NCBI GenBank assembly: GCA_964467335.1
Contig: CAYXPX010000004.1
Location: 1 to 33,300 of the forward strand
Direction: 5' to 3'
Length of the DNA stretch: 33,300 bases
Source of the DNA: Candidatus Woesearchaeota archaeon
Lineage (GTDB): Archaea; Nanobdellota; Nanobdellia; SCGC-AAA011-G17; GW2011-AR18
The notes beneath the pieces were generated by a model. It worked only from the letters and a program-made list of their open reading frames with translations. It did no database searches and was not told the DNA's origin. Within the stretch, counting starts at the first letter, position 1. Each line of letters begins with the position of its first letter. Made by a program: the position numbers and the translations under genes. This document shows, in pieces, positions 12,302 to 30,045 of the stretch.

Positions 12302-13042
12302 ATGCCATATGAGATAGAAAGTATTTATCAGGATATTGTAAAGAACCTGAACGACGGACTGCTTGATCCTGCTGTGCCTCTGACAGTAAATGACAAAAAA
12401 AGAAGAGCAAACCTCAGAATTTTGATCACTACCCTTGAATTTTTAAGAAAGGAAGAATCTGACAATCCATTATTTTCAGATGCAATGCATGTAATCAGCG
12501 ATTTAACAGACGTGCTTAAAAATCTGTTAAAAATTTATGATAATTACAGAAACGCGGGATTAAGACTTAGGGATTTTGACCAAAAAATTCTAAAAGAAAT
12601 CAACAGCAGGATAGTTTCCATCATTCGTTTAATTCTTGCCTGGCTTAAGAATGTAAGACAAAAATCAGAAGAAGTTGCTGCTGGAAACAATCATCTAAAA
12701 GACCTTAAACTGCATCCTAAAAACACAAGGTTTTATGCAAAGGTAAAAGAATTCAATCCAGACTATACAGAAGAAATGGTTCACCCAATAAACGAACACC
12801 AAAAAGCCATTCAGAGAAAAAGAACAACAGAAGAATTACTAAAACTTGATGTAAATGACCCAATAACCGGCGCACGAAACTACAGAAAAGGAGATGATTA
12901 TTTTTATCCTGGCTCAAAATTGATAGTTTCACAAGGACATCACAGGCTGTATGAATTATACATAAGATATCTTCAGGGAAAACTTGAAGGAAATACCTTA
13001 GTTGAATTTATTATAGATGAAAAATACCTAAAGAAAAGGTGA
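12302..13042 (+). CDS. hypothetical protein (246 aa) with a C-terminal 'QGHHRL' motif (weak ParB/Srx-like hint only)
   Basis: ORF track. The only recognisable element is 'KLIVSQGHHRLYEL', which resembles the DGHHR core of ParB-like nuclease domains. The rest is unassigned. Confidence 0.5.
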   Translation: MPYEIESIYQDIVKNLNDGLLDPAVPLTVNDKKRRANLRILITTLEFLRKEESDNPLFSDAMHVISDLTDVLKNLLKIYDNYRNAGLRLRDFDQKILKEINSRIVSIIRLILAWLKNVRQKSEEVAAGNNHLKDLKLHPKNTRFYAKVKEFNPDYTEEMVHPINEHQKAIQRKRTTEELLKLDVNDPITGARNYRKGDDYFYPGSKLIVSQGHHRLYELYIRYLQGKLEGNTLVEFIIDEKYLKKR

Positions 13043-15596: not shown

Positions 15597-15636
15597 AAAT
15601 GTTTTTAAAGTTCTTTTATAGCCTATTTTTTGCTAA

Positions 15637-15840
15637 GCCACCGTGGCTCAAATTATTTAAAACTTTTTAAATAAGGGCAGCGGTAGAGCAGCTGTTATTT
15701 AATAGCTGAAACTTGTATGCTGATCATCTGATGCTTAAACGCAAATGATCTCAAAGTGATCAGCAGGTTGGGGGTTCAAAGGAATCTTTCTTAGAAAGAA
15801 AGCTTCATCAAAGAAGGTTCTGAAAGTCCCTCCGGTGGCT
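15637..15840 (+). tRNA. tRNA-Thr(UGU)-like gene interrupted at up to four positions (D-loop, 30/31, 37/38, T-loop)
   Basis: Hand-folded. Perfect 7-bp acceptor GCCACCG/CGGTGGC, U8. D-arm GCTC-A[29 nt]GCGGTA-GAGC. Anticodon arm GCTG[16 nt]A-CTTGTA[41 nt]A-TCAGC. Variable loop AGGTT. T-arm GGGGG-TTCAA[46 nt]GT-CCCTC. Discriminator U (typical of archaeal Thr). 204 nt = 72 + 132. The exact splice sites are ambiguous by 1-2 nt. Confidence 0.55.
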
Positions 15841-15910
15841 TTTATTCTTATCTGCGTTAGCAAACCTTAGTTAGTAAACTTTTTATTCTCAATAGAAAAT
15901 CCCATTTTAT

Positions 15911-15997
15911 GGGCCCGTGGTCTAGCGGTTATGACATCACCTTGACGAAAAAATTTCAGAATGGTGAGGGTCGCAAGTTCAAATCTTGCCGGGCCCA
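15911..15997 (+). tRNA. tRNA-Val(GAC) with a 14-nt canonical (37/38) intron
   Basis: Acceptor GGGCCCG/CGGGCCC. D-arm GTCT-AGCGGTTA-TGAC. Anticodon stem TCACC/GGTGA with loop TTGACG|intron. Variable loop GGGTC. T-arm GCAAG-TTCAAAT-CTTGC. Discriminator A. Confidence 0.8.
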
Positions 15998-16002
15998 TTT
16001 AT

Positions 16003-16197
16003 TTATTCTTCCATAATCTTAAACTTTCTGCTTAATCCAAAATTAACCTTTAGAATTTTAAATTTTTTAAGTTTAAGGCCTTCAGCATATTTTTTTGCAG
16101 CCTCTTCAGAAGTGAAAGTTTTCAGCCTCTTCTTCCTGTTTCTTTCATTTCCAACAGGCATGTAGCGTCTTCTCCTGGTATGAACTCTCTTTGCCAT
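16003..16197 (-). CDS. small highly basic hypothetical protein (64 aa)
   Basis: ORF 16003..16212 trimmed to 'MAKRVHTRRRRYMPVGNERNRKKR...'. Arg/Lys-rich, possibly nucleic-acid binding. No family recognised. Confidence 0.4.
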   Translation of the reverse strand: MAKRVHTRRRRYMPVGNERNRKKRLKTFTSEEAAKKYAEGLKLKKFKILKVNFGLSRKFKIMEE

Positions 16198-16248: not shown

Positions 16249-16260
16249 CTTTTATATACA
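16249..16260 (+). promoter_or_regulatory. putative TATA box for the 16280-27383 operon
   Basis: 'cttttatataca' centred about 26 nt upstream of the ATG at 16280. Confidence 0.4.
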
Positions 16261-16279: not shown

Positions 16280-18316
16280 ATGCAAAAAAGGGGTCAAGCA
16301 GCAGCTTTCATAATCCTAGGTGTAATAATCCTAATTGTTGTGATAGGTTTTATGGCTGTGAAAACCGGTTTCTTAAGGGACCTTTTTGAAAAAATATCTG
16401 TGGAGAGAAGGGCTGTGCCACAGCAGATAAAACCACTGCAGGATTTTACAGACAGGTGCGTTGAGCAGACAACAGGAGAGGGCGCTGCCATCATAGGCCA
16501 GCAGGGAGGCTATATTTTTATTCAGGGAGATGAAATTCCAACAACACAATTTTCTCCGCTTGGTAGAAGCCTTGAAATAGTGCCTGCATCAGATTTCAGG
16601 ACAGCTGTGTGGTACAGGGAGAGCGGAAATGGAATACAAGAGTCAAACATGCCGTCAAAGCAAAAGATGGAAGAAGAACTGGCAGATTATATTAACTTAA
16701 ATTTTGCAGAATGCCTAAGCAACCTTACCTCATTTTCAGAGCAGGGATATTTAATAGAAGCTGATGCAGTGCCTAAAACAACAGCAAGAATAAACGAAAG
16801 AAGCATAGAATCAAGCGTTGAATTTCCAATAAATATAAGAATTCTTGATACAGAATTTACGCTTTCAGAACATGGAGGAGAGATTGACTCAAACCTGGGA
16901 CACCTGTATAATATGGCAGGCGAAATAATGAAAAAAGAAAATGATGACAATTTCCTTGAAGAAAAGACCATTGATATGCTTGTAGCATATAATGAAGAGG
17001 TTCCTTTTACAGGAACAGACCTTTCATGCAGCGAGAGAGTGTGGATAAAATCAGATGTTGAATTAAAACTTAAAAATATTTTATTTGAAAACATTGCAGC
17101 CATGAAGATAAAGGGCACGAATTATGAATTAAATGATGAAAGCCTTAAGTATCTGGAATTTGATCCTCTTTCAACAAAAGATGACACTGTTACTGCAAAC
17201 CTGATGTATATTCCTGACTGGCCAACATTTGTAGAAATAAATCCTTCAGAGGGAAATATACTAAGAAGCGATCCAGTATCCAAAAGAACAGGCGGCCTTG
17301 CAGGACTTGTATCATCATTCTTCTGTCTTAACACCTACAGGTTTGTTTATGACCTTAAGTATCCTGTGATGATAACATTAACTGATGACAGCGGCTTTTC
17401 ATTTCAGTTTGCAATGCAGGTAATAATAGACAACAACCAGCCCAAAGAAAACAAGCTTGAATTTCTTGAAGTTCCTGAGGCTGAAAATCCAATATGTGAC
17501 TTTCCACAAAGGGAGGTTACAATATTTACAGCAACACTTGATAAAAACGAAGACATTGCTCCACTTGAGGGAGTAAGCCTGAGCTACAAATGTTTTCCTG
17601 CTTCATGCCCGCTTGGAGAATCAGAGCTTAATCCAAAGGGCGAACCTGAATTAAGAACGCTTGTGCCATTATGCTTCAATGGAGTTATAGAGGGATCAAA
17701 AGAGGGATACAAACAGGTTCAAAAAATATTTTATTCATCAAACGACCCTGATGCTCCTCCATTTATGCTTGTTGTGCTTGAGCCTGTTTACAAAAAAAAT
17801 GTTGCTGTAAAGGTCATAGAGGAAGAAACTGGCGCTGTCAGAGAACCTTATGAAACAGAACAGATAAGCTTCCAGTTTTTGAGCACAGAAACAAATTTTC
17901 AGTCAAGCTATATTTATCCTGATGAAGAAATAAAAACAATTGAATTAATTCCAGGAGATTATACCTTTAATTCATACATAATTAGAGAGGCAAGCACTTA
18001 TAAAATTACATTTCCCAAGCAGACAATAGAAACATGCATTGATACCAGAGACTTTGGACTGTTTGGGTTCTTTAACCAGAAGCAGGTATGCAGTTCAACA
18101 GAGACTGAGCCTGCTGAGTTTGATACTGTACTGACTGGCGGAGCCATAAATGTTGAGCATGAATTCACAAGGGAGGAACTTGCAAGAGATGCGCCGTTAA
18201 CATTATATGTACTTTCGTCTTCAATACCTTCAGGCCAGGAAGATTTTCAGAATATTATGATAAAACTTGAAACAAATGAGGATCATCCATTATTTAGATA
18301 TCCGGAGATAGCATGA
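16280..18316 (+). CDS. extracellular protein with a type IV pilin-like (class III) signal peptide, 678 aa
   Basis: N-terminus 'MQKRGQAAAFIILGVIILIVVIGFMAV' has a short basic leader, Gly, then an uninterrupted hydrophobic helix, as in archaeal prepilin-peptidase substrates. The rest is unassigned. ATGA overlap with the next gene. Confidence 0.8.
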   Translation: MQKRGQAAAFIILGVIILIVVIGFMAVKTGFLRDLFEKISVERRAVPQQIKPLQDFTDRCVEQTTGEGAAIIGQQGGYIFIQGDEIPTTQFSPLGRSLEIVPASDFRTAVWYRESGNGIQESNMPSKQKMEEELADYINLNFAECLSNLTSFSEQGYLIEADAVPKTTARINERSIESSVEFPINIRILDTEFTLSEHGGEIDSNLGHLYNMAGEIMKKENDDNFLEEKTIDMLVAYNEEVPFTGTDLSCSERVWIKSDVELKLKNILFENIAAMKIKGTNYELNDESLKYLEFDPLSTKDDTVTANLMYIPDWPTFVEINPSEGNILRSDPVSKRTGGLAGLVSSFFCLNTYRFVYDLKYPVMITLTDDSGFSFQFAMQVIIDNNQPKENKLEFLEVPEAENPICDFPQREVTIFTATLDKNEDIAPLEGVSLSYKCFPASCPLGESELNPKGEPELRTLVPLCFNGVIEGSKEGYKQVQKIFYSSNDPDAPPFMLVVLEPVYKKNVAVKVIEEETGAVREPYETEQISFQFLSTETNFQSSYIYPDEEIKTIELIPGDYTFNSYIIREASTYKITFPKQTIETCIDTRDFGLFGFFNQKQVCSSTETEPAEFDTVLTGGAINVEHEFTREELARDAPLTLYVLSSSIPSGQEDFQNIMIKLETNEDHPLFRYPEIA

Positions 18317-21300
18317 ATAAGGCAAAAAAATTAGGGGCAATGTTCTGTATATTTCTGCTATTGTCAACTACTTTAATTTATGGCCAGACACTTGTTCCAA
18401 GGCAAGAGACTACAGATTTTACAGGGCCTGCAAGCCAGAGGGCTGATCCTCTGTTCGGAGGAAACCTTGGGGGATTTGCATACAGTGATCCATACCAGCA
18501 GGATGTGAGAAGACTAACCGGAGCTTATTCTTCACCTTTTGATGTTGCATTGGGGGAGGCAATACTTGTGATTCCTTCAAGGCAGGATCCGCCGCAGGTA
18601 AGACAGTCTGCACTTGAACAGCAGGATCTTCCTGTTTATGTTTATCTTAAAGGAATTACTGCAGGTTCATTATTATCCTCGCTGACAGGAGATGTTGAAT
18701 CAAGAGATCCATTATCAGGCATAACAAACATTCCTCCAATTGATTACATTGATATACAGGTTAATGCATCAAGCGAGGACTATGAATTTGTCAGGTTTGC
18801 AAGGCATATCAACCCAAGACCAAACAGACTATCGCTTGACAATCTCGGCATGCTTGCTGTTTATTTAAGAAAGCTCCCAAACGAGGAAGAAACGCCTGCA
18901 GACAATACAATAACACTTGACTTTAATGCAAGAATTTTTCTTAAGCTTGAAGAGAGCAATTTGCTTGGAGTTTCCCAGCAGGACCTTGCGCTAAAACAGT
19001 TTGAAAATGAGGAAGAATTTTTCAGAAACAAGAATGAGCATTCATTTTATTCTGGCAAGGGTTATGCAAGGGCAACAAGGATATCCGGAGATACAACTAC
19101 ATTATTAATTTATAACAGAGACTTAAGGCCTGTATCAGCAGCTTCAGGATTTTTAACAACAGAGGCAACAAGACAGGGATTAAGACAGCCTGTGCCAATT
19201 ACATTAAGAAGAGGAGAGGTTTCACAACCCTTAACATTTGCTTATACAGGAAATCCGCTGACTGACATGTTCAGAGTAAGACTTGATGATGTTTCCACTC
19301 CATCAGACAAGGCTGAGCTTGAATTTTACTTAAACGGAAGGACTGTAAGAAGAAAAGCAGCTGTAGGCAGAGAGATTTTTTCAGGCTCAAACTGGATTTT
19401 AAAATCAATAACAAAAACAGACAGCGGAAGAAAAGCTGACAACACAAACATTGATGCAATAGCGGCTGAGTTTAGTTTAAATGAGCAGGCAAAAAACAGA
19501 TTAATTTCAAGGGTGAATCAGCTTGGGAGTTTATCCATTTACCAGCATACAATAACACTTGAGAATAAAATAACACGTGACAGAAAATCATTGTCTTCAG
19601 AGATAATATCTGACAGCGGGGGAAACCAGCTTAAGGTTGATGTAGTTCCGATAGGCAGGGACTATGCTGAATCTCTTGAGGATGAATACTGCACTGAGGA
19701 AAACCCTGAAATTGCCAATGGAGATTTTGCATGCGATGCAATAAAATCATTCAAACAGATCATAAAATCATTTCCAGCATCTGCTGAAGCAGAAAAAGCA
19801 AAGAGAGATCTGGCTGAAATTTATGACCTGGAACTTATTGACTTCAAGTCATGCAGAAAAAAAGCTGACGGAAGGCCTGTTGATAAGAAAAAATGCGATG
19901 AGTTTAGAATGGACATGACTGACTTAGCACATTATTATTACACGCAAATTGGAGAGAAAGATACATTTGAAGCCAGATTTGGCGGCAAGGTTGGAAAGAT
20001 GCTTCTTGAGGATGAGGGAGCAACATTAAGCCTCTTAAGAACAATTAAACAGGAGGAGGAGCAGTCAACAATAAGCATAAAAATCTACAAGGATCCTTTA
20101 AGGCATGACGAAGTTCATAACATAAAGCAGCTTGATGAAATAATATTTCCTGACACAGAAATAAATTACAAGGGCAGTACAGATTATGTATGGAAAATAT
20201 CCTTAATAACAGGAGACTCAGCAACATTAAGACTTTTCAGGAAGAGCGGAGATTCTTATTCTGCAACACAGGAGGCGCCTGTCACATTAAAACTTGATGA
20301 GATAAAATCTGTCACAACATTATTCCCTGAAAGAGATGCGCTTGGAAATCCTGCAAGGCCGGAGGAAACAAGAAATGTTGTTCTGACAAAGGTGAATACT
20401 GTTGAGGAGGCATACATTACAATACTTCCAGGACCTGGGAGAGCATTTACAACTTCCACATTCAAAGTGCATATTCCTGTTGATCCAAGGCCATTTAAGT
20501 TAACACCACAACAAATGGAGTCACATATAAAAACGACAGAGGAAATAATTGAAAAATTAAATTCTGTAATTGAAAAGCTTGACAGGGTAATATCAACAAT
20601 GAAAAAATTATGCCTTGGCGTGTGGGCATTTTTAACATTAAAGAATTCAGTTTCAGGAACAAGAGCAATTGCAAGGCAGCACGTTTCTGAGAGCTATAAA
20701 TCAAGATGCCAGCAGGAGAGCCTTGAAAATCCTGACAAATTTCCCACAATGACAAGATGCCTTAACTTTTATTCTGATGAGATAACAAAAGACATAGACA
20801 GAACAGAGAAGCATATCAAAGACATTAACCTAAACATAAAGGGAAAGGCTATTGAGGATATAAATATGCTTGAATCTGATGATGAGAAAAAAATATGCGG
20901 AGGATTTACAGAATTTTCAGAGGCAGGCGCAGCGCTTGGAGCAAAAAATCAGGGAATAATAAAAGACTATAGGGACTGCCTGCTTTATGCAAAAATACAA
21001 AACGACAATGCAATAGGCGAGAACTATAAAAATTTCATTGCAGGAAGACTTGATGAATTAAAAACAAAACAGAGAGTTGAACTTTATAACAAGGCTAAGG
21101 CATTTGCTGATGCTGATTCTTCAGATTTATGGGACAGCAATAATGCAACGCATATAAGAAGGATAATTTCGCAGCTTGACAGCCAGAGGGAAACAGGGGA
21201 TGCAAAAATTGTTGATGTGGAATTCAAGAGACAGGAGCCTGGACTTTGGTTTGGAGATGCGCTTGTCCAAGACAGCTCTTCACCACAGGGAATAAAAACC

Positions 21301-24300
21301 ATCACATTAAGAGGACTGAACGAGTATGATGCAATAATACAGGACAATGAATTCAAAGACGATATACAGGCAAAAGAGCATATATGCAATGAAGTTTTGA
21401 GCAATGCAAAATGGGAAAATTCCAGATGTTCAGATGAAAATGTCCAAACAAGAAACAGAGATGACGAATTAGACAGAAAGATTCTGGATCTTAAGAAAAA
21501 GCCTGCAATGAACGGTCCATATCACAGGTTTATTACCAATGATTACTATGAAACTGCACATGGATTTCGTGCAGAATTAACAGAAAATGAATGCAAAAGA
21601 GTTAATGGAAAGTGGAAAGGAATTTTAGGCTCTGGCCTTCTAGCAGAATGTGAACCACAGGAGTATTCAACATCATATATTCTTGATTCAGCTGGAAGGC
21701 AGATAAACCAATTTTACTCAGAAGACCCTCTTCCAGCATATTACAGGGATGACGGCTTAACATATTGCTATCCAACAGGAAACGGGGATTATGCTTTGGT
21801 TGTAGAAAGATTCCAGGGGCAGAATAAACTAATAAACAAAATTACTGTATTTAATGTCGGCCCTAACGGCAGGATTGAGTGCGGCGCAGGAGATGATGAG
21901 ATTGTTCATCTTTCAGACAAACTGGATGTACTCCCTGAACTGAAGAGAAGCTATATTTCAAAAGAGCCGCAGGCAAGATGCACTCCAAAAGAGGATGGAA
22001 AATCTGTTGGCAGAAAAATTAACGGAAAAGATGTTGTATGCAAAACCGGACTTGCAGGCGACAGATATAATGAATTGTTAAAACCACAGTGCATTGATGT
22101 TATGGATCCTGCAGACTGCAAGATAATGTTTAACTTCTGCGATCCTGTGATGTGCCCAAGCTCAAGATGCACGCTTGGCGGCAGAGTGCCTGAGAGAGAT
22201 GTTATACAGTCTGGAATTATCGGATCAACTTTGTTATGCCTTCCAAATGTTAAGGAGGGAATTGCAGTACCTGTTTGTTTAACTGGAATAAGTGCGGGGT
22301 TGAAATCAATAAGAAGCGTTCTTGAGGGTTACAAAAGCTGCCTTGAAATAAAATTAAACAACAATGAAAACGTAGGTTTCTGCGATTACATAAGGTCTGT
22401 CGGAATATGCGAAGTTGTGTGGAAAGAGACTTATAATCTGTTAAATATTGGAGGGAGAGGACTGCTTGACTGGGTTTCAGGAAATGTATTCGGAGAGGCA
22501 AAGGGCGGAGGAGAATATTTAACGTTCCAGAGCAGCCTTGATAATGTAGGGAAAAGCGCCAGAGTATTTACTGAAGAATACAAAACAACTTATACAGCGC
22601 AATTTTTATCGCAGTCGACAGAAGATATAGGAACACAGATATGCAGGCTGAGTGTGAATGGAAAACTTCCAAATGTCGGCAAGATACTTGACCAGCTTAC
22701 AGAACCTGAAAATCCTCCGCAGTTTACAGCATTTTTTGATGAAAGACCCTATGCTGCGCCTGGAGAGGCACTGCCTTCGCCTACTATACCTGCAGGAACA
22801 CAGGAGGTTTCAATGTACAGGGTGCTTTACCACATTTATGCAGGCACTGGATTTTTCCAGGGAGCATACTCCCAGCCTGTAAGCTTATTTAATCCAAACA
22901 CACCATTAGGAGATCCGCAGGCAATTACTTATTCAGTGTTCCTGAGAAATCAGCAGCTAGGACTTCCAATTATGTATGTAACATTTTCAGGAGAATTAAG
23001 CCAGCAGATTGGTAGGATAGATCCTGGAAAGTTCCAGCAGCAGACTGTGCAAAAACCAGGGCCAAAGGGTTACAATGAAATATGTGTCGTGATAAACGGA
23101 GTTGAGCACTGCGGATTTGGGAAGGTTGGCACATCATTTGGATTTGATGAGCTGCAGGATGCATTAACTGCAGGAGAGGCAGCAGAGGAGATTAACTCTG
23201 CTGAGAAATGTGTTCCAAGCTCAAGAACATCAAGAGAATATTCAATTGCAAAGCTAGGAGCTGTTGCAGGTACTGCGCTTACAGTAGGAGGAACTGCAGC
23301 AGGAATTGCAACTTCTGGAATAGAAAAAGATCTCACGAGCACAGGAGTTGTAAGGGTATGCAGTGCAGAGTCTCCTACACCTGAAACAGGAAGATGGAGA
23401 AATGTTGGATCATGCGGAGAGGATGAGAGAGGGAAGAACCTTGGGGCATGCTGGCTTGACATGGAATCTGCAACAATCAAAGACAGAAAAATAAATGAAG
23501 ATTTGTACAGGGAGATATCTGAAAGAGCTGGAGAGAGATTTGAGTCAATAGATAAAAACACAGCAAGCGAGATATTTTTTGCATTGAACAAAAGAAGGGA
23601 TGCAATACTGCAGCAGCTTAGAAGCGAGATAAGAGACGCGCTTAGTGGGAGGGCACCAACATCTGAACCAAAGAAAATTGTCATAAGGCCGCCAGCACCT
23701 GTGACACTAGGCTTAAGAGCAGAGAATGTTTATGATGTATACCTAACAGACAAAGATATTGAGAGAGAGCTAAGCCCTTATATTTACAGAGAAGTGCAGG
23801 AACATGAAGGCATAGACTATTTTTTCATAAAATCAATAATAAAGAAAGAAAGCGACTGGAGAGAGGATCTTGTTGGGGCATGCGGAGAGGCAGGAATTAT
23901 ACAACTGCAACCATCTACTGCAGAAGATGCAATTAAACATGGTGCACCAATAACAAAAATACTCAATCCAATACCAGGAACAAGCATAAGTTTTAGGGGA
24001 GGATGTGACAGAGAATACGGCCAGGCACTTGAAAATTTTATCAGTGGAAAAAGTCATGAAGAGCTTGTTCAGCTTGACGAGAGATTTGATAATGAGAAGG
24101 CAATTAAGACAGCAATGATTTATTTTGAGAAATTTATTGTAAATGCCTACAAAAAAAATGAAATTCCATTAACTGTTGAAAACATTGCAGCAGGATATAA
24201 TGCAGGAGCTGGAGCTGTTATAAGCGGCAATATTCCTGAAAGAACAAAAGATAAATATATGCCGAATGTAAGAAGAGATTACGACAGCTTGTTTAACAAG

Positions 24301-25041
24301 GCGCAGCAGAGAATTGCTTCTGCAGGGGCAGCAGGAACAACCGCAGCAGCAGGAGTCGAAAAGGACGCTGAATGTGCAAGAGCATTTGGAACTGAGGACT
24401 ATGTTGCGATAGTACAGGACAATACAATTGCATGCGATGCAAATGACAGAGATTTGTGCTGCACAAGAAAAGAATTAGTGCCTCATATTGAGAGAATAAG
24501 AGAAACTGCTGCTAATGCAAAAAAAGTCATAGTAATAGTTGATCCTACAAGAACACCTGCTGACCAGAGACTTGCCTTCCTGGATTATCTTGCAGGAGGC
24601 GTACTTGCATGCGGACCAAACAGCATGAGCGGGCCAGAAAAAGAGGGAATTGCACGCAGAATTCCAAATACTGGAAATACAAAAGAGGAAAGAATACAAA
24701 CAACCTTAAGCAATTTAGATTCAGCAACAAAAGCAAAGATTAATGATGGATCAGAATATTTAAGATGTCCTCATGTTATGGGAAGGGCACTTGATATAAA
24801 GTTTGCAGGCATGCCAAGCATATACAAAGAATTAAAGGATATGACAGATTCAGAACTAATGGCTGTAAAACAGTTCCGTGAATTTATGTGCGACATTGGA
24901 TGGGCAAATTTAGGAAAAGAGTGGTGGCATTATGAAATAACATCTAGTTCATACAGAACAGCAAAAAATTCAAACAGCTGCCATTGGGGAACTTTGGTAG
25001 GACCTGAACCAGACGCAACTCCGGATTATAAATATGCATAA
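18313..25041 (+). CDS. giant secreted protein (2,242 aa) with a C-terminal SLT lytic transglycosylase module and an M15/LAS-type peptidoglycan peptidase module
   Basis: Uninterrupted 6.7 kb ORF. Sec signal 'MNKAKKLGAMFCIFLLLSTTLIYGQ'. SLT block 'IIKKESDWREDLVGACGEAGIIQLQPSTAE...AAGYNAGAGAV'. M15 block 'RTPADQRL...CPHVMGRALDIKF...GKEWWHYEI'. About 1,800 N-terminal residues are unassigned, including a Cys-rich segment. Confidence 0.85.
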   Translation: MNKAKKLGAMFCIFLLLSTTLIYGQTLVPRQETTDFTGPASQRADPLFGGNLGGFAYSDPYQQDVRRLTGAYSSPFDVALGEAILVIPSRQDPPQVRQSALEQQDLPVYVYLKGITAGSLLSSLTGDVESRDPLSGITNIPPIDYIDIQVNASSEDYEFVRFARHINPRPNRLSLDNLGMLAVYLRKLPNEEETPADNTITLDFNARIFLKLEESNLLGVSQQDLALKQFENEEEFFRNKNEHSFYSGKGYARATRISGDTTTLLIYNRDLRPVSAASGFLTTEATRQGLRQPVPITLRRGEVSQPLTFAYTGNPLTDMFRVRLDDVSTPSDKAELEFYLNGRTVRRKAAVGREIFSGSNWILKSITKTDSGRKADNTNIDAIAAEFSLNEQAKNRLISRVNQLGSLSIYQHTITLENKITRDRKSLSSEIISDSGGNQLKVDVVPIGRDYAESLEDEYCTEENPEIANGDFACDAIKSFKQIIKSFPASAEAEKAKRDLAEIYDLELIDFKSCRKKADGRPVDKKKCDEFRMDMTDLAHYYYTQIGEKDTFEARFGGKVGKMLLEDEGATLSLLRTIKQEEEQSTISIKIYKDPLRHDEVHNIKQLDEIIFPDTEINYKGSTDYVWKISLITGDSATLRLFRKSGDSYSATQEAPVTLKLDEIKSVTTLFPERDALGNPARPEETRNVVLTKVNTVEEAYITILPGPGRAFTTSTFKVHIPVDPRPFKLTPQQMESHIKTTEEIIEKLNSVIEKLDRVISTMKKLCLGVWAFLTLKNSVSGTRAIARQHVSESYKSRCQQESLENPDKFPTMTRCLNFYSDEITKDIDRTEKHIKDINLNIKGKAIEDINMLESDDEKKICGGFTEFSEAGAALGAKNQGIIKDYRDCLLYAKIQNDNAIGENYKNFIAGRLDELKTKQRVELYNKAKAFADADSSDLWDSNNATHIRRIISQLDSQRETGDAKIVDVEFKRQEPGLWFGDALVQDSSSPQGIKTITLRGLNEYDAIIQDNEFKDDIQAKEHICNEVLSNAKWENSRCSDENVQTRNRDDELDRKILDLKKKPAMNGPYHRFITNDYYETAHGFRAELTENECKRVNGKWKGILGSGLLAECEPQEYSTSYILDSAGRQINQFYSEDPLPAYYRDDGLTYCYPTGNGDYALVVERFQGQNKLINKITVFNVGPNGRIECGAGDDEIVHLSDKLDVLPELKRSYISKEPQARCTPKEDGKSVGRKINGKDVVCKTGLAGDRYNELLKPQCIDVMDPADCKIMFNFCDPVMCPSSRCTLGGRVPERDVIQSGIIGSTLLCLPNVKEGIAVPVCLTGISAGLKSIRSVLEGYKSCLEIKLNNNENVGFCDYIRSVGICEVVWKETYNLLNIGGRGLLDWVSGNVFGEAKGGGEYLTFQSSLDNVGKSARVFTEEYKTTYTAQFLSQSTEDIGTQICRLSVNGKLPNVGKILDQLTEPENPPQFTAFFDERPYAAPGEALPSPTIPAGTQEVSMYRVLYHIYAGTGFFQGAYSQPVSLFNPNTPLGDPQAITYSVFLRNQQLGLPIMYVTFSGELSQQIGRIDPGKFQQQTVQKPGPKGYNEICVVINGVEHCGFGKVGTSFGFDELQDALTAGEAAEEINSAEKCVPSSRTSREYSIAKLGAVAGTALTVGGTAAGIATSGIEKDLTSTGVVRVCSAESPTPETGRWRNVGSCGEDERGKNLGACWLDMESATIKDRKINEDLYREISERAGERFESIDKNTASEIFFALNKRRDAILQQLRSEIRDALSGRAPTSEPKKIVIRPPAPVTLGLRAENVYDVYLTDKDIERELSPYIYREVQEHEGIDYFFIKSIIKKESDWREDLVGACGEAGIIQLQPSTAEDAIKHGAPITKILNPIPGTSISFRGGCDREYGQALENFISGKSHEELVQLDERFDNEKAIKTAMIYFEKFIVNAYKKNEIPLTVENIAAGYNAGAGAVISGNIPERTKDKYMPNVRRDYDSLFNKAQQRIASAGAAGTTAAAGVEKDAECARAFGTEDYVAIVQDNTIACDANDRDLCCTRKELVPHIERIRETAANAKKVIVIVDPTRTPADQRLAFLDYLAGGVLACGPNSMSGPEKEGIARRIPNTGNTKEERIQTTLSNLDSATKAKINDGSEYLRCPHVMGRALDIKFAGMPSIYKELKDMTDSELMAVKQFREFMCDIGWANLGKEWWHYEITSSSYRTAKNSNSCHWGTLVGPEPDATPDYKYA
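23770..24300 (+). other. SLT (lytic transglycosylase, goose-lysozyme-like) domain of the giant protein
   Basis: Catalytic 'ES' in 'KSIIKKESDW', then 'GEAGIIQLQPSTAEDA' and 'IAAGYNAGAGAVISG' in the canonical order and spacing. Confidence 0.75.
24450..24960 (+). other. peptidase M15 / VanY-like (LAS zinc hydrolase) domain of the giant protein
   Basis: 'HVMGRALD' (H-x6-D zinc motif preceded by a small residue) and 'EWWHYE' (third ligand / E-x-W-H motif) about 45 aa apart. Confidence 0.65.
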
Positions 25042-26641
25042 AAAAATATTATTAACAATGTTTGTACTGCTTTCCCTAGCTGCAGCAGTTTATTCTCCTG
25101 AAGATTCATGCGAGGGAAAGGCAGTATGCCTACAAAAAGATTTACCTGAGAGCCAGCAGAAGATTGAAGAGCTTTATAATCTAAACATTGGCGGCACAGG
25201 ATACAGGGACATAGTTGACAGATCTGCAGATATTTCCATAGGCTTGCAGGCATTGTACGAGGCAGGCAGAACTGCAAAGGAGCTCGCACTTTTAAGGGCG
25301 CAGTATGAGGGAATAGGAAAAGCTGAATTAATTATAGAACAAAGAATAACAACGTCTACAACCACAGAAGACGCTCCTGATTTTACAGAGGAGGATATTC
25401 CAGAGATAGATTTTTCTGAGGTGCTGAAAAGAGAAAAGAAAGAATTAGCTGAATCACAGATTGAATCTGCAAACATAAGATTAAATGACGGGAGCCTGTT
25501 TTCAAGAGATTATTTTGTGAGATTTAAAAATGGAAAGTGGGAGTGGTGCAAGAATCCTGTTTTTGGAAGCTGCGATGACAAGAAATTTAATTCTATACAT
25601 TTTCCAAAAAAGGAAGAGGCAGGAGAATTTTATGAAATTTTATACTCATTAGAAACTGCTAACATTGAGGGTGGATCTTTTTCTCGTGAAGGCGTGCCTC
25701 TACCAGAAACAGCAATTTATGAAAGGGGGCTTGTAGATATTTTAAGAAAACTTGTATTTTTAAGGCTAGGAATTTCAGAAATGATTTTTGAAATTGGCAA
25801 CAGCAGAGTCTATGTCGAGGCTGACACAACAAGAGTTGTTGAGAGATTTGATATAATAATCAGCAACAGAAAAGCATTTGTATCAGGGGCAGATGATGTA
25901 AGGAAATTTATAACCACGACAGAGCCTTTCAGGCCGCAGTTTGAAAATATATTTCAGGAATTCAAAAATCTTGTAGATAGGAAATCTGCACAGTCTTCGC
26001 CATTTGAGGCACAGCCTGGAGGAATACCTGAGGAAGAATTGGAGATGGAAGAAAGATTTATAGAGGAAGGGGAGGAAGATAGAAAAAGCAATAATATTCT
26101 TGATGGATTTAATTTAGAAGGAGCACAGGTAATTAAGTATAGATTTAATGAGGGGCCTAATAAAACGAGAAAATTATCAGATGTTGACAGAGTGGTACTC
26201 CACCATACAGAGGGCTCAGCTCCAGGACAGAGGACGGTTGACTATTTAATTGACAGAAGAGGACTTTCTATACATTATGTGGTGGATAAGGATGGAAATA
26301 TAATCTATGCAATGTCAGAAGATATGGTTGCATTTCATGCCGGATGCAAAAGAGATAAGGAAATTTTTTGTGTTGAAGGTATGAATGAAAGGTCAATAGG
26401 AATTGAGATCACAAACAGTGGAAGGTCCGATGATTTGTTTACTGATGCTCAATATAACACTTTACGACAGCTTCTCCCCTATATAACCAACAATTTAGGA
26501 ATACCTTTTGATAATGAGCATATTATAGCACACTATGAGATAACAAGCAATAAGGATGACCCACAATACTTCCTCTGGGATAAAATAGGACTTTCTAGTC
26601 ATATTTCATACAATGAATTCAAAAGAGAGCATTATGCTTAA
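25034..26641 (+). CDS. secreted N-acetylmuramoyl-L-alanine amidase (Amidase_2/PGRP fold) with a novel roughly 380-aa N-terminal region
   Basis: Signal 'MHKKILLTMFVLLSLAAAVYS'. C-terminal 'VVLHHTEGS...LSIHYVVDKDGNIIYAMSEDMVAFHAG...NERSIGIEITNSG...FTDAQYNTLRQLL...IIAHYEITSNKDDP' is the Amidase_2 pattern. 8-nt overlap (ATGCATAA) with the giant gene. Confidence 0.8.
   Translation: MHKKILLTMFVLLSLAAAVYSPEDSCEGKAVCLQKDLPESQQKIEELYNLNIGGTGYRDIVDRSADISIGLQALYEAGRTAKELALLRAQYEGIGKAELIIEQRITTSTTTEDAPDFTEEDIPEIDFSEVLKREKKELAESQIESANIRLNDGSLFSRDYFVRFKNGKWEWCKNPVFGSCDDKKFNSIHFPKKEEAGEFYEILYSLETANIEGGSFSREGVPLPETAIYERGLVDILRKLVFLRLGISEMIFEIGNSRVYVEADTTRVVERFDIIISNRKAFVSGADDVRKFITTTEPFRPQFENIFQEFKNLVDRKSAQSSPFEAQPGGIPEEELEMEERFIEEGEEDRKSNNILDGFNLEGAQVIKYRFNEGPNKTRKLSDVDRVVLHHTEGSAPGQRTVDYLIDRRGLSIHYVVDKDGNIIYAMSEDMVAFHAGCKRDKEIFCVEGMNERSIGIEITNSGRSDDLFTDAQYNTLRQLLPYITNNLGIPFDNEHIIAHYEITSNKDDPQYFLWDKIGLSSHISYNEFKREHYA
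26180..26610 (+). other. Amidase_2 catalytic domain within CDS 25034..26641
   Basis: See the motif string in the parent CDS. Confidence 0.75.
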
Positions 26642-27383
26642 ATCAAAGAAACTGCCGGTAATGATTGTGCTGGAGATAATATTTGCAATACTATTAATTG
26701 CTTTCCTGATTTTGGTAAGGCAGCAGGCTCTTGGCTATGTTTCAGAGATTCAGTCTTATGCCGGGGATATAGATTTGATCTCACAGCAGGCAACGCAGAA
26801 TGATCTCTCGCCTGAACAAAGATACAGCATAGACCAGACCGTAAGCTCTTTTGATAAAATATTAAACAAGTCGCTTATATTACTGCAGCTAATTCTTCCA
26901 TTAACTATTTTTATTATGTCTATTATATTTTTTTATTTTATATGGCATTTTATAAACAAGATTACATTCAAAAGATTTTTAACTTATTCAATAATTCCAA
27001 TCATTTTACTGCTTGCTTCCGTGTTCTTTACAATAAATTATATAGCATATGTTTATTTCTTTGTTGATGAAAACCCAATGCCTTATTTGATAGTTTCTTC
27101 ACTGTTGTTGATAATAACTTATTATATTTCACTATTTGGCCTCTCAAACAAAAATAACTTGAAATCAAATCTCAAAATTTCACTCAAAAAATTTACCAAA
27201 GTTTTTCCTTTTTATATAATTATATTCATCACAAACGCCTTGTATCTAGTTTTTGTTTTTTATGTTTTTTTTCTTACATTTGCAAAAGCTTCAATTTTGA
27301 TACAATCTCTGATACTGCTTGCCGTCATTATAATAATAAATATACAAAGAGTTCATTTAGTAAAAATTATTTCTAGACAATAG
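26634..27383 (+). CDS. polytopic membrane protein (about 6 TM helices), last gene of the muralytic operon
   Basis: ORF 26613..27383 trimmed to the ATG at 26634 ('MLKSKKLPVMIVLEIIFAILLIAF'), giving an ATGCTTAA overlap with the amidase gene. Very hydrophobic and Ile/Phe-rich. No family recognised. Confidence 0.65.
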   Translation: MLKSKKLPVMIVLEIIFAILLIAFLILVRQQALGYVSEIQSYAGDIDLISQQATQNDLSPEQRYSIDQTVSSFDKILNKSLILLQLILPLTIFIMSIIFFYFIWHFINKITFKRFLTYSIIPIILLLASVFFTINYIAYVYFFVDENPMPYLIVSSLLLIITYYISLFGLSNKNNLKSNLKISLKKFTKVFPFYIIIFITNALYLVFVFYVFFLTFAKASILIQSLILLAVIIIINIQRVHLVKIISRQ

Positions 27384-27652
27384 AATGTGGTCATATCTGC
27401 ATTTCTCTTAGCATATATAATCATAGTGCACAAAAGTATATAAAAGTCTGCATTATGATATTTAGCAATTTTTTGTCAACGCAACATCTTTGAGAATAAG
27501 TGCTGGGGACATGCGATGGACCTAGAGTCACATGCACATCCTAGTTGACATAAATTTCAAAATTTTATAATTTGCCTATTGCTTCTAGTATTTTTTCGTG
27601 ACCTTTTATTAATTTTTTAAAGTGCTGTAGCTCTTGTAATACTATTTTGTTC

Positions 27653-28048
27653 TTATCTTTCGAATTTTTTGATTTTGCCATTTTTAATCCATTGCTTGAT
27701 TTCTTCATCGCTATAGTAATTTTCTCTTAGGCCTAATAATGTCTTAGCATAATGTGGATCATCTTCTATTTTAAACTTTTGATTGTTGCTTAATATGAAC
27801 TCTTTTGTTACTATAAATGCTGTTCTTCTATTTCCGCTTGCAAACGGATGTTTCTGAACTAAACCTTTTAGTAAAACAACTGCTTTATCGTAAATGTCCC
27901 CTTCTTTTTCTTCACATTCTTTTATAACTTCTACAATTTTACTTCTGCTCAAAACTTTTGGTGCGTCAGCTTTTTTCACTTTTATTAATTCTAGAGCTAA
28001 TATGTTGTATTCTATAATCTGCTCTGGTGTTGGATAAATTATTTCCAT
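27653..28048 (-). CDS. doc: Fic/Doc-family protein (death-on-curing-type toxin)
   Basis: 'VQKHPFASGNRRTAFIVT' matches the Doc variant of the Fic motif (HxFx[DNS][AG]N[KR]R). 131 aa, typical Doc size. Confidence 0.75.
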   Translation of the reverse strand: MEIIYPTPEQIIEYNILALELIKVKKADAPKVLSRSKIVEVIKECEEKEGDIYDKAVVLLKGLVQKHPFASGNRRTAFIVTKEFILSNNQKFKIEDDPHYAKTLLGLRENYYSDEEIKQWIKNGKIKKFER

Positions 28049-28135: not shown

Positions 28136-28600
28136 TTAATCTTTAAATTGTATTGGAATACTCTCTCCCTTTCCTTTTCTAACTTTAAAAACATTAAAGT
28201 GTAAGTGGGGTTCTGTAGTAAGCCCAGTCATTCCCACATAACCTATGATTTCTCCAACATTTATTTTTTGTCCTTTCTTTACTGGAACATTTTTATCTAA
28301 ATGTCCATATTCTCCATAACTTCCGTCAGAATGAGCAATATAGACGCGATTTGTATATTTATTTACAAAATTTGTTATTTCTTCTGAACTCATTGAACTA
28401 ATTATTTTTGGATCACTAATAAATTTATTTGAATCTTTCTTTAAAGCAACAACTTTTCCTGATCTTGTAGCCAAAATAGGTGTTCCTAATGGGGCTGGAA
28501 AGTCTACCGCAAATCTGGATTCAATGAATTTTGTATGATGTTCTCCAGTATGTTTTTTAGATTTAATATTGCTTGGAAATGGATAAGCATATTTTACCAT
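28136..28600 (-). CDS. short M23-like peptidase without a signal peptide (first zinc motif non-canonical)
   Basis: 'AVDFPAPLGTPILATRSGKVV' and 'GMTGLTTEPHLHFNVF' (HxH) are M23 blocks. The HxxxD His is replaced ('SRFAVD'). No N-terminal hydrophobic segment. Confidence 0.7.
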   Translation of the reverse strand: MVKYAYPFPSNIKSKKHTGEHHTKFIESRFAVDFPAPLGTPILATRSGKVVALKKDSNKFISDPKIISSMSSEEITNFVNKYTNRVYIAHSDGSYGEYGHLDKNVPVKKGQKINVGEIIGYVGMTGLTTEPHLHFNVFKVRKGKGESIPIQFKD

Positions 28601-29512: not shown

Positions 29513-29855
29513 ATTCGAAGAAATACATCAAGCAATAATTTGATAATTGAAATAATAAACAAAAAACAGAAATAGTTCTTCTTACTTTATAGTTAGCAGA
29601 AGAGTTTTAATATTCTAAATAAAATTAATAATGCGGATTCAAGTCCTAAAAATCTGACAAGATTTAAATAACAGGGCGTATTAATAGATTATATTGGGGG
29701 TTCAAAGTCCTAAAAGACTTTTCCGCCAATATGGTGGCTTCGAAGTGAATTCGAGAAAAAATCAACAATCCATTTCAAAAGCCTAAAAGTATGATAAAGT
29801 TGCTTTAGGAAAGGCATAAGCGAGAAACAGACTTCTGCGGAATGGAATCATAAAA

Positions 29856-30012
29856 TGCGGGGGACAGGATTCGAACCTGCGTAGACCTAAGCCACCAGGT
29901 ATCTTAAAATCACAGCATTATTGCTCATAATACCTTTTCCTAAGCTAAACCTTCTAGTTCATTATAAAATGAAACTAGAATCTGGCCCGTTTGGCCTCTC
30001 CGGCACCCCCGC
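29856..30012 (-). tRNA. tRNA-Leu(UAG) (class II, long variable arm) with two predicted introns (36 nt at 30/31; 38 nt at 37/38)
   Basis: Reverse complement reads GCGGGGG-TG-CCG-GAGAGGCCAAA-CGG-G-CCAG[36 nt]G-CTTAGG[38 nt]A-CCTGG-TGGCTTAGGTCTAC-GCAGG-TTCGAAT-CCTGT-CCCCCGC-A. This restores a perfect CCAGG/CCTGG stem and a CUUAGGA loop. 157 nt = 83 + 74. Confidence 0.7.
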
Positions 30013-30045
30013 AATAAAAAACGAAGAAATAGTATAAAAGCCTTG

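Follow-up and report, generated by a model that had tools for sequence, protein, structure and literature searches.

A four-gene block of a Woesearchaeota-type archaeon encoding a giant secreted protein with a conserved core and a variable tail

Why would an archaeon keep, in one block of adjacent genes, domains that are specific for bacterial murein? The question is raised by four consecutive genes in a 33,300-nucleotide stretch of DNA (the window, i.e. the whole stretch that was analysed). A preliminary description of the window had taken them for an archaeal operon built around muralysis, possibly associated with a pilus and without a described precedent. Here, the gene order, the domain assignments and the relatives of the block were examined.

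Organisation and chromosomal setting

The block and its features, all on the forward (+) strand, are as follows.

16251-16258, +, TATA box TTTATATA, 22-29 nt upstream of the gene 1 ATG
16280-18316, +, gene 1, 678 aa (ORF calling)
18313-25041, +, gene 2, 2,242 aa (ORF calling)
22063-23541, +, hyperconserved Cys-rich core of gene 2, aa 1251-1743, the family-defining region (alignment)
23791-23973, +, SLT (GH23 lytic transglycosylase) match in the gene 2 tail, PF01464, aa 1827-1887
24520-24957, +, probable LAS/M15 (VanX/VanY-like) zinc peptidase region in the gene 2 tail, unconfirmed (motifs)
25034-26641, +, gene 3, 535 aa (ORF calling)
25121-25675, +, N-terminal module of gene 3, no assigned function, aa ~30-214
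26177-26566, +, C-terminal Amidase_2 domain of gene 3, PF01510, aa 382-511
26613-27383, +, gene 4, 249-256 aa, start at 26613 or 26634 (ORF calling)

The overlapping stop and start codons reported for the four same-strand genes are all present. Direct reading of the sequence gave ATGA (18313-18316) between genes 1 and 2, ATGCATAA (25034-25041) between genes 2 and 3, and ATGCTTAA (26634-26641) between genes 3 and 4. The start of gene 4 is ambiguous, as a further in-frame ATG lies at 26613, 21 nt upstream, so that the last overlap is 29 nt or 8 nt. All four products are predicted to be secreted or membrane-bound. The TATA-like box noted before the first ATG was compared among loci, and its position relative to the ATG is invariant in 8 orthologous loci, while the flanks have diverged. 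Therefore, the box is not a mere AT-rich coincidence, and its spacing implies a leaderless or near-leaderless operon mRNA. Judged from the sequence, the four genes are a genuine operon native to a DPANN (Woesearchaeota-type) archaeon.

The neighbours had been called unambiguously archaeal, and Pfam confirmed TFB, S8e, L37e, LSm, eS1 (S3Ae), uS15, GINS51, SRP54, FtsY and TrmB among them. Intron-containing tRNAs are also found in the window. The neighbourhood running from eS1 to L37e/LSm/S8e/TFB is common to the window and three other loci (L001, L004 and L006). The conservation of this chromosomal position rules out a mobile element as well as a chimeric contig, the latter having been named as a possible objection. 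Relatives of the gene 2 core were found in 521 species-representative genomes, and the best 80 of the 521 genome matches are all Woesearchaeota, Pacearchaeota or Nanoarchaeia MAGs. There is one core locus per genome in the contigs examined, and no relative was found among 2.9 million viral contigs. The block appears to be native and vertically inherited.

Conserved core, partner genes and variable tails

A class III signal has K or R followed by G, A or S, is cleaved before Q or a hydrophobic residue, and continues into a hydrophobic helix (the FlaFind-type rule). Residues 1-27 of gene 1 form such a prepilin-like signal or anchor (KRG, then QAAAFIILGVIILIVV after the predicted cleavage point), with Q at +1 as in EppA substrates. 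The pattern K/R-G/A/S-Q plus a hydrophobic stretch is kept in about 56 orthologues, in agreement with the signal assigned earlier. The remainder of the protein is predicted to be extracellular and has conserved Cys residues. No Pfam family, including Class_IIIsignal and the archaeal pilin families, was matched at E ≤ 0.1, the PDB search gave no relative, and the 62 database relatives are all called hypothetical, none with a precomputed Pfam domain. In 61 of 62 loci, the giant gene is directly preceded by a gene of this type (640-700 aa across loci), and the 4-nt ATGA overlap is found in 37 loci. By this co-occurrence, gene 1 is an obligate partner of the giant gene. The suggested pilus association had been drawn only from the resemblance of the signal peptide and was not upheld: prepilin peptidase, pilus ATPase and platform genes were found neither in the 33-kb window nor among the called genes of the related loci L001-L007.

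The product of gene 2 has 45 Cys residues and a net charge of –46. Its N-terminal hydrophobic (Sec) signal is present as described and is its sole TM-like segment. Residues ~25-1760 of the protein are conserved as a core, and residues ~1760-2242 form a variable effector tail; among 125 family members, conservation falls from ~0.5 to ~0.1 past aa ~1790. The hyperconserved Cys-rich part of the core was matched by 1,039 representative clusters and holds two short hydrophobic stretches (aa 1297-1311 and aa 1316-1330). AlphaFold and Foldseek, which had been recommended for the unassigned residues of gene 2, were applied to this hyperconserved part. Its AF2 model had a pLDDT of 69; the beta domains were predicted with confidence, the helical Cys-rich part only with low confidence, and neither the Foldseek search nor a PDB sequence search gave a match. 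No recognisable hydrolase, known family or fold was detected in gene 1 or in residues 1-1760 of gene 2. Since neither has a recognisable fold or family, any mechanism for gene 1 or the core is a guess.

The tail of gene 2 had been said to end with SLT and M15 motifs. SLT family 1 is marked by a catalytic Glu in E-S, by GxxGxMQ and by AYNxG. The PF01464 profile scored 35.2 bits on gene 2 (cut-off 21.3) and 41.5 bits with the tail alone, and the catalytic E-S (IIKKESDW), GEAGIIQLQP and a downstream AGYNAG were identified. M15 peptidases bind zinc through HxxGxAxD and ExxH, with an Arg motif upstream; RTPADQRLAF (~aa 2080), HVMGRALD (aa 2154) and EWWH (aa 2203) are of this type and are conserved only in one orthologue of 81% identity. 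The Pfam M15 profiles gave nothing at E ≤ 10 on the native segment. Peptidase_M15 (PF01427) on trimmed constructs (E = 0.1-0.18) and NCBIfam VanX (E = 0.002, 17.9 bits, cut-off 320) gave sub-threshold matches. This region gave no match in PDB phmmer, in a word-based search for homologues or in tblastn against phages, and the AF2 model of aa 1801-2242, built from 3 sequences, was unusable (pLDDT 40.6). The SLT assignment and the M15 motifs thus stand, and the M15/LAS domain itself is unproven, with no significant profile.

Gene 3 carries a signal peptide, and its Amidase_2 domain was matched by PF01510 with 90.5 bits (cut-off 26; profile positions 3-130 of 131 covered), as well as by 20 PHROG endolysin/amidase families. 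Both properties are as first described, and Amidase_2, like SLT, scores above its curated cut-off. The Amidase_2 zinc ligands of T7 lysozyme and AmpD are His, His and Cys or Asp, together with a catalytic Lys. VLHHTEG and AHYEITSNKDDP in gene 3 are candidates for these residues, an equivalence judged by eye and not by structural alignment. The N-terminal module of gene 3 is fused to the tail of the giant protein in two other loci (L010 and L036). Six hydrophobic segments were predicted in gene 4 by the Kyte-Doolittle method, in keeping with the roughly 6-TM protein reported before. The gene is found downstream in 33 of 58 loci (~57%), where it abuts the giant gene or one gene intervenes; it is missing from the more divergent clade and is poorly conserved (34% mean column identity in the alignment). 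By its predicted topology and its position, gene 4 is an accessory membrane partner.

Comparison of the loci, which supplied the synteny search that had been proposed, separated a fixed part from a changing part. The universal unit is gene 1 and the first ~1,760 residues of gene 2. The gene 2 tail and the gene 3 slot are swappable and carry SLT, M23, Amidase_2, glucosaminidase, DPBB or nothing recognisable. In 16 loci, the slot held Amidase_2 three times, SLT three times, and M23, Hydrolase_2 and Exo_endo_phos once each. The orthologous tails carry 14 different Pfam families, and a Pfam-recognisable murein hydrolase was found in only 14-22 of 64. Therefore, the function of the core needs no murein hydrolase, and the claim that the operon is built around muralysis could not be maintained: the conserved gene 1 and gene 2 core, often with gene 4, have no recognisable hydrolase, and the hydrolases are confined to the variable tail and slot. 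Tails and slot genes together include six or more murein-specific domain families. The murein-specific repertoire of the related loci also extends to other domains (M23, glucosaminidase, DPBB/RlpA-like, Hydrolase_2 and SH3_3), so that bacterial peptidoglycan is the likeliest target.

Proposed function and alternatives

The reading to which we lean, with somewhat more confidence than doubt, is a lineage-specific surface apparatus of Woesearchaeota/Pacearchaeota-type DPANN archaea with interchangeable effector tails against bacterial murein. One transcript, probably leaderless, would start from the conserved TATA box. The gene 1 product would be anchored, and possibly processed, through its prepilin-like N-terminus, and Sec would export the gene 2 product. 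Because their genes are strictly co-inherited and overlap, the two proteins most likely form one extracellular complex, which we infer to be displayed on the cell surface. The 6-TM protein of gene 4 may help to hold or assemble this complex in many lineages. The body of ~1,760 residues would serve as a scaffold or delivery device, and the gene 2 tail and the gene 3 protein, separate or sometimes fused, as interchangeable effector modules. If these are active, the SLT lytic transglycosylase would cut the glycan strand, the probable LAS/M15 peptidase the stem peptide or cross-link, and Amidase_2 the MurNAc-L-Ala bond. Together, they could open bacterial murein at the contact site, which would allow the archaeon to attach to bacteria, feed on them or kill them. 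It speaks against this reading that, to our knowledge, no bacterial host of any Woesearchaeon has been described.

A bolder form of this proposal, which we regard as speculative and rather doubtful, is that genes 1 and 2, with or without gene 4, make a contact-dependent archaeal delivery machine that had so far gone unrecognised. In it, a prepilin-processed stalk or filament of gene 1 would present the giant protein, the Cys-rich segment with its hydrophobic hairpin would be a membrane-active penetration device, and the swappable tails and slot genes would supply cargo adapted to the cell-wall chemistry of whichever bacterium is the host. Were this true, the machine would determine the host range in the most widespread DPANN lineages and would be an interdomain counterpart of the CDI, Rhs or T6SS effector systems.

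The same domains could instead belong to released, soluble bacteriolysins or scavenging enzymes, which would release sugars and amino acids from free or dead bacterial peptidoglycan, or kill distant competitors, without any contact apparatus. Export by Sec or signal peptide and the lack of a membrane anchor in the gene 2 and gene 3 products fit this idea. Haloarchaeal peptidoglycan hydrolases work from the culture supernatant (PMC12352652), dead-cell peptidoglycan has been proposed as an amino-acid source of Pacearchaeota (PMC11537232), and many biosynthetic pathways are missing in DPANN archaea (PMC6349945). However, a hyperconserved body of ~1,760 residues, an obligate anchored partner and a membrane protein are all superfluous for a simple secreted enzyme, and many orthologues have no recognisable hydrolase, which leaves this explanation rather unlikely. 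A further possibility is that the gene 1-gene 2 core has nothing to do with bacteria, being a major scaffold of the envelope or one of an S-layer-like kind, or else an organ for attachment to archaeal hosts, with the hydrolase tails as minor opportunistic add-ons. The core is conserved independently of the tails, is near-universal and lies among housekeeping genes, with one locus per genome across the contigs examined. A hyperconserved Cys-rich segment, however, is atypical of S-layer proteins. The DPANN hosts known so far are archaea (PMC6349945), but murein-specific domains from many families have reached the same two positions in repeated, independent recruitments, which argues for selection on a murein-related role. 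A core unrelated to bacteria is therefore considered unlikely.

If the archaeon itself made a wall of a murein-like or pseudomurein-like kind, the enzymes could be its own autolysins or serve to remodel that wall; the set of SLT, amidase and endopeptidase is typical of bacterial autolytic sets. Neither the 33-kb window nor the flanks for which genes were called contained a murein synthesis gene, however, and the hydrolase content is variable or absent in close relatives, unlike that of housekeeping autolysins. Furthermore, published surveys treat these lineages as murein-free and remark that archaea with pseudomurein seldom carry peptidoglycan hydrolases (PMC12352652, PMC8204110). This origin is very improbable. 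A foreign block, whether a lysis or tail module of a prophage or conjugative element, a bacterial contaminant or a chimera, might be suspected from a giant protein with C-terminal SLT and peptidase, which resembles phage tape-measure/tail lysins and VirB1-like conjugation hydrolases. The GC content of the block (0.37-0.44) is also slightly above that of the AT-rich stretch downstream, and toxin-antitoxin and Fic genes lie nearby. Nevertheless, the same ribosomal-protein neighbourhood recurs in independent assemblies, the best 80 of the 521 genome matches are all DPANN archaea, viral relatives are absent, the PHROG matches are limited to the SLT and amidase domains, and the archaeal TATA box is conserved across loci. 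A foreign or chimeric origin is thus effectively refuted, as the preliminary description had expected.

Relation to known systems

Large SLT proteins of these archaea were reportedly noted by Rinke in 2013 and Castelle in 2015. Large extracellular SLT-domain proteins of Woesearchaeota/Pacearchaeota, with an inferred attack on or attachment to bacteria, have been published (PMC8204110; Vigneron 2022, PMC9723730; PMC10936187; PMC11537232), among them the family fam00969 (PMC8204110, 2021). Gene 2 is very probably a member of fam00969. The published family is confined to Woesearchaeota and Pacearchaeota, with which the lineages of the best 80 of the 521 genome matches agree. It has 2,242 aa, a signal, no other TM segment and a PF01464 match, and the lineages, the extracellular location and the proposed binding or degradation of bacterial walls are the same. 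The published family reaches ~3,000 aa, and the relatives found here have 1,600-3,800 aa. Therefore, the novelty first claimed was overstated, since both the proteins and the hypothesis of an attack on bacteria were published between 2015 and 2022. No description of the four-gene architecture was found in the literature examined. There, the protein is described by SLT only, without the upstream prepilin-signal gene, the 6-TM gene and the second effector slot, whereas here SLT is a swappable tail on an unannotated core of ~1,760 aa. The operon architecture, the pilin-like partner and the polymorphic tails appear to be new. The published picture is also corrected, in that SLT turns out to be accessory rather than family-defining; this accounts for the absence of the transglycosylase from some Pacearchaeota.

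The plan of gene 2 is reminiscent of bacterial polymorphic toxins (CdiA, Rhs/YD, MafB and T6SS Tae/Tge), which likewise have a conserved N-terminal delivery body, a variable C-terminal effector, peptidoglycan amidase or glycosidase effectors and modules exchanged between lineages. However, there is no sequence or fold similarity, the producer is archaeal, and gene 2 gave no Pfam match to Rhs/YD, haemagglutinin repeats or PT-TG. Export would be by Sec together with a partner instead of TpsB, T6SS or T7SS. No cognate immunity gene was seen downstream, where the gene 3 effector and gene 4 lie; none would be needed, because the producer presumably lacks the substrate. Phage virion hydrolases and tape-measure proteins with C-terminal SLT/M23, as well as VirB1/PrgK/TcpG, share with gene 2 a very long protein ending in a transglycosylase and a peptidase for local murein breach, but the homology is limited to SLT (PHROG E ~ 1e-3), and gene 2 is chromosomal, vertically inherited and absent from viral contigs. 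The SPEARE protein of Candidatus Nanohaloarchaeum antarcticus, reportedly described by Hamm et al. in 2019, is likewise a giant secreted multi-domain protein of a DPANN archaeon, with a proposed role in attaching to the host envelope and penetrating it. Unlike gene 2, it has protease, adhesion and nuclease domains and an archaeal host, and no homology was detected.

Few uncultured archaea are as widespread as Woesearchaeota and Pacearchaeota. A conserved surface apparatus with exchangeable tips that hydrolyse bacterial walls would, among genomic clues, point most strongly to a life on bacteria rather than archaea for at least some of them. The operon offers handles for tests, such as expressible catalytic modules, the obligate partner gene 1, a hyperconserved epitope for localisation, and tail repertoires to be compared with co-occurring bacteria. 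That secreted peptidoglycan hydrolases of an archaeon can kill bacteria was demonstrated by experiment for Woldo/Danwoldo of Halogranum salarium (PMC12352652). These also carry bacterial-type muralytic domains (M23 and glucosaminidase), but they are small modular proteins (catalytic plus PG_binding_1) with Tat signals and a patchy distribution, without a scaffold, a pilin-like partner or an operon. Also in favour of the proposed surface apparatus, the window contains two further M23 peptidase genes, one of them with a Tat signal.

Organisation and genomic setting of the operon

The operon is composed of four open reading frames located on the same strand.

16280-18316, + strand, gene 1, 678 aa
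18313-25041, + strand, gene 2, 2,242 aa
25034-26641, + strand, gene 3, 535 aa
26613-27383, + strand, gene 4, 256 aa

The sequence was read at each junction, and the stop and start codons overlap exactly at the positions of the preliminary description: ATGA at 18313-18316 (genes 1 and 2), ATGCATAA at 25034-25041 (genes 2 and 3), and ATGCTTAA at 26634-26641 (genes 3 and 4). The start of gene 4 is ambiguous because of a further in-frame ATG at 26613. A TATA octamer, TTTATATA, is located at 16251-16258, 22-29 nt 5' of the ATG of gene 1. When the 86 nt upstream of gene 1 were aligned for eight orthologous loci, this octamer was the only invariant block and its distance to the ATG was constant. Therefore, the TATA-like box noticed earlier is a genuine archaeal TATA box. 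Its spacing would imply a leaderless or nearly leaderless transcript. Kyte-Doolittle analysis gave a single strong hydrophobic segment at the N-terminus of gene 1, a signal-like segment at the N-terminus only of genes 2 and 3, and six hydrophobic segments in gene 4, in agreement with its description as a membrane protein of about six transmembrane segments. The operon as observed is genuine and clearly exceeds what chance would give.

The archaeal surroundings that had been claimed were borne out. The neighbours found by Pfam are unmistakably archaeal and include TrmB, GINS51, an archaeal-type phosphoglycerate mutase, TruD, FtsY, SRP54, a RIO-type kinase, uS15 with an S13/S15 N-domain, eS1 (S3Ae), L37e, LSm, S8e, and TFB. 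Intron-containing tRNA genes occur there as well; default ARAGORN detected no tRNA in the window, Rfam two, and ARAGORN with introns allowed the following three.

12160-12264, + strand, tRNA-Ile, intron-containing
15910-15998, + strand, tRNA-Val, intron-containing
29855-30013, - strand, tRNA-Ser with a 60-nt intron

The GC content of genes 1-3 is 0.37-0.44, and values in this range recur in other parts of the window, such as 9-11 kb. After 26.5 kb the GC content falls to about 0.29, a drop that coincides with AT-rich spacers and the membrane gene, which is rich in Ile, Phe, and Lys. The placement of the operon between eS1 and L37e/LSm/S8e/TFB is kept in independent assemblies (orthologous loci L001-L003, L004, and L006). 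Therefore, a chimeric contig or a recent insertion was ruled out, and the operon is a native block, as had been proposed, and not a contaminant. A viral or mobile origin was ruled out by the same synteny together with the finding of no gene 2-core relative in 2.9 million viral contigs.

Hydrolase domains of genes 2 and 3 and their variation

The SLT domain (GH23 lytic transglycosylase) claimed for gene 2 was recovered by Pfam at aa 1827-1887 with 35.2 bits against a cut-off of 21.3, and the region retains the E-S catalytic motif (KKESDW), GEAGIIQLQP, and AGYNAG. The Amidase_2 domain of gene 3 was likewise found at aa 382-511 (90.5 bits, cut-off 26). Candidate His/His/Asp-type zinc-ligand motifs are seen in gene 3, as judged by eye, and 20 PHROG endolysin or amidase families matched it. 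For the M15/LAS peptidase (VanX/VanY-like zinc peptidase class) proposed in gene 2, the motifs RTPADQRLAF, HVMGRALD (aa 2154), and EWWH (aa 2203) are present, also in P0002, the 81% identical orthologue, but the domain assignment was not obtained with profiles. Pfam gave nothing for M15 on the isolated segment, even at E<=10, and E=0.1-0.18 for Peptidase_M15 on constructs trimmed of an insert of about 70 aa. The best NCBIfam signal was VanX (E=0.002, 17.9 bits against a cut-off of 320). This region also gave no match in the PDB with phmmer, in a word-indexed search for homologues, or in 50,697 phage genomes with tblastn, and PHROG matches were confined to the SLT and amidase domains. The AF2 model, built on a three-sequence alignment, was unusable (pLDDT 40.6). 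A VanX/VanY-like LAS peptidase in the gene 2 tail is probable but unproven.

Pfam was run on 64 tails, that is, on the sequence beyond the conserved gene 2 core. Most of them contain no recognisable Pfam domain, and the others carry diverse families.

Pfam families in the 64 tails (number of tails)
SLT: 14
M23: 3
SH3_3: 2
Transglutaminase-like: 2
Amidase_2: 1
DPBB_1: 1
Glucosaminidase: 1
Trypsin_2 and Trypsin (trypsin-type protease): 1 each
GDSL lipase: 1
DUF1615, TIG, Big_7, and Ank_2: 1 each

The position of gene 3 is a similarly variable effector slot. The 16 slot proteins contain Amidase_2 (three), SLT (three), M23 (one), Hydrolase_2 (one), or Exo_endo_phos (one), and nothing recognisable was found in the rest. 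Slot proteins have in common a module near the N-terminus, corresponding to aa ~30-214 of gene 3, which is repeated 2-4 times in some of them (loci L001 and L018). It is an unannotated repeatable domain with a possible role in wall binding or docking. In two loci (L010, aa 1906-2222; L036, aa 1775-1930), the tail of the giant protein includes the same module as a fusion, which indicates a functional link between genes 2 and 3.

The conserved unit of gene 1 and the gene 2 body

Full-length relatives of gene 2 were found in Woesearchaeota/Nanoarchaeia MAGs, one being 81% identical and the others 37-45%. A profile of the best-conserved part of gene 2, aa 1251-1743 (A2), matched 1,039 clusters among 1.84 billion representative proteins, 907 of them at E<=1e-30 and most with a length of 1,600-3,800 aa. 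When one genome per prokaryotic species was scanned, 521 genomes carried a relative of the gene 2 core; each of the best 80 is a MAG with the label Woesearchaeota, Pacearchaeota, Nanoarchaeia/Nanoarchaeota, or unclassified 'archaeon'. Across 125 aligned family members, the highly conserved stretches of gene 2 are aa ~100-350, ~700-850, and ~1150-1750; conservation has its peak at aa 1250-1450 and collapses past aa ~1790.

The gene neighbourhood was surveyed by calling ORFs in 82 non-redundant loci and searching them with HMMs from the genes of the window. A gene 1 homologue lies directly 5' of the giant gene in 61 of the 62 loci with enough upstream sequence, and 37 of these 61 keep the same 4-nt ATGA overlap. 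Gene 4 homologues are found downstream in 33 of 58 loci: in 14 they abut the giant gene, and in 19 a single gene lies in between. The more divergent (Pacearchaeota-like) loci lack gene 4. Gene 1 and the gene 2 body are kept while the tails and the slot vary. Therefore, the conserved unit is gene 1 with the gene 2 body, often accompanied by gene 4. The muralytic domains are cargo that can be exchanged, and the operon is not muralytic at its core, contrary to the preliminary description.

The N-terminus of gene 1, MQKRG|QAAAFIILGVIILIVV, has the form of an archaeal class III (prepilin) signal. About 56 orthologues, elsewhere 26-60% identical, keep the pattern [KR]-[GAS]-Q-[VA]-[TA]-x-F-[IV]-I. 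This conservation upholds the class III signal noted earlier and supports a prepilin-like signal or anchor in gene 1. Genes 1 and 4 have no match in Pfam, NCBIfam, or PHROG families; the sub-threshold matches of gene 4 to DUF6768 and MSC_0882 were judged to be chance. Because gene 1 belongs to no pilin Pfam family, all 62 of its database relatives are 'hypothetical' proteins free of Pfam domains, and neither a prepilin peptidase nor a pilus ATPase is found near the operon in the window or in the called genes of related loci, the term 'pilus-associated' is still a hypothesis.

The AF2 model of gene 2 aa 1130-1765, based on a 47-sequence alignment, has a mean pLDDT of 69. Confident beta-rich domains are seen at aa ~1130-1250 and ~1470-1630/1680-1765. 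The hyperconserved Cys-rich segment (aa ~1258-1465) is modelled as long helices with low confidence and contains two short hydrophobic stretches, aa 1297-1311 and 1316-1330. Foldseek against PDB and BFVD returned nothing at E<=0.001, only generic beta-sandwiches, and PDB profile searches with the alignments of gene 1 (A6), the core (A2), and full-length gene 2 (A1) gave nothing significant. We infer that the core may serve as a scaffold or penetration device.

Proposed function and neighbouring features

A single leaderless operon would give four products. The gene 1 product would be anchored or processed, the giant protein exported via Sec, gene 3 would supply a second secreted effector, and gene 4 a membrane protein. 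That genes 1 and 2 are strictly inherited together and overlap in their reading frames suggests assembly of their products into one surface structure. Here its tips would be SLT acting on the glycan strand, the probable LAS peptidase acting on the stem peptide or cross-link, and Amidase_2 acting on MurNAc-L-Ala. To our knowledge, murein synthesis is not known in archaea of this group. Together with the repeated recruitment of diverse murein-specific domains to two positions, this points to bacterial peptidoglycan as the most likely target, either at cell-cell contact (attachment, feeding, killing) or in the environment (scavenging, competition). Two extra M23 genes in the window fit a genome invested in wall hydrolysis.

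6854-7897, + strand, Tat-signal (SRRGFLGG) M23 peptidase, 347 aa, C-terminal Peptidase_M23 (68 bits)
28136-28600, - strand, M23 peptidase of 154 aa without signal peptide, just downstream of the operon (76.9 bits)

The central idea of bacterial-wall attack by this family is already published as a proposal. Castelle et al. (PMC8204110) described a large SLT protein family specific to Pacearchaeota and Woesearchaeota, with reference to previous observations (Rinke 2013, Castelle 2015), and proposed that it serves to attach to bacterial walls and that the hosts are bacteria. Vigneron et al. 2022 (PMC9723730) reported a 'large lytic murein transglycosylase' and proposed a 'vampiristic' lifestyle, and later surveys (PMC10936187, PMC11537232) repeat the same proposal. 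Secreted haloarchaeal peptidoglycan hydrolases were experimentally shown to kill bacteria in a 2025 PLoS Biology study, which also points out that Nanoarchaeota are prominent carriers of such hydrolases (PMC12352652). The earlier interpretation as a wall-breaching operon is thus right in part, but its main claim had been published and the core is not muralytic. In our limited literature check, the cited papers contained neither the obligate prepilin-signal partner, the conserved promoter and operon, and the 6-TM partner, nor the second effector slot with its giant-protein fusion, nor the place of SLT as an accessory tail domain rather than the family core. This accessory place accounts for those Pacearchaeota genomes that 'lack the transglycosylase' (PMC11537232). 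Should the core of genes 1 and 2 turn out to be a new kind of delivery machine acting between domains of life, the significance of the operon would be much greater.

Further features lie around the operon.

9367-11151, + strand, ORF of 594 aa with no Pfam match, in a GC-rich part of the window (~0.40-0.42)
12302-13042, + strand, ORF of 246 aa with no Pfam match
16003-16197, - strand, very basic ORF of 64 aa with no Pfam match, divergent from gene 1
27653-28048, - strand, Fic/DOC-family gene, just downstream of the operon

Counterparts of the 64-aa ORF, equal in size and position, are found beside gene 1 in L001 (7181-7375) and L005 (5003-5197). A small ORF (27565-27708) precedes the Fic/DOC gene and the pair resembles a toxin-antitoxin system; in L001, L004, and L005 the operon block is likewise flanked by Fic, HicAB, and PIN/MazE pairs. 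A few kb downstream of the block, L005 (17841-19972) and L007 (17357-20033) carry DsbD-type, thioredoxin/glutaredoxin, and multicopper oxidase genes, none of which occurs within the window. They are suggestive of extracytoplasmic disulfide chemistry, which a Cys-rich giant protein would need.

An intergenic stretch of about 210 nt (15635-15843, + strand), located between eS1 and tRNA-Val, is self-closing (GCCACCG...CGGUGGC) and folds better than its shuffles (z=-3.4). In L001 (2230-2372, where it again directly follows eS1) and L012, its core of 76-87 nt is 86-89% identical and is better conserved than the neighbouring proteins. The copy in the window has two extra inserts. T-arm-like and C/D-box-like elements are seen in the stretch, which is possibly a tRNA with several introns or a different small RNA, not called by Rfam or ARAGORN.
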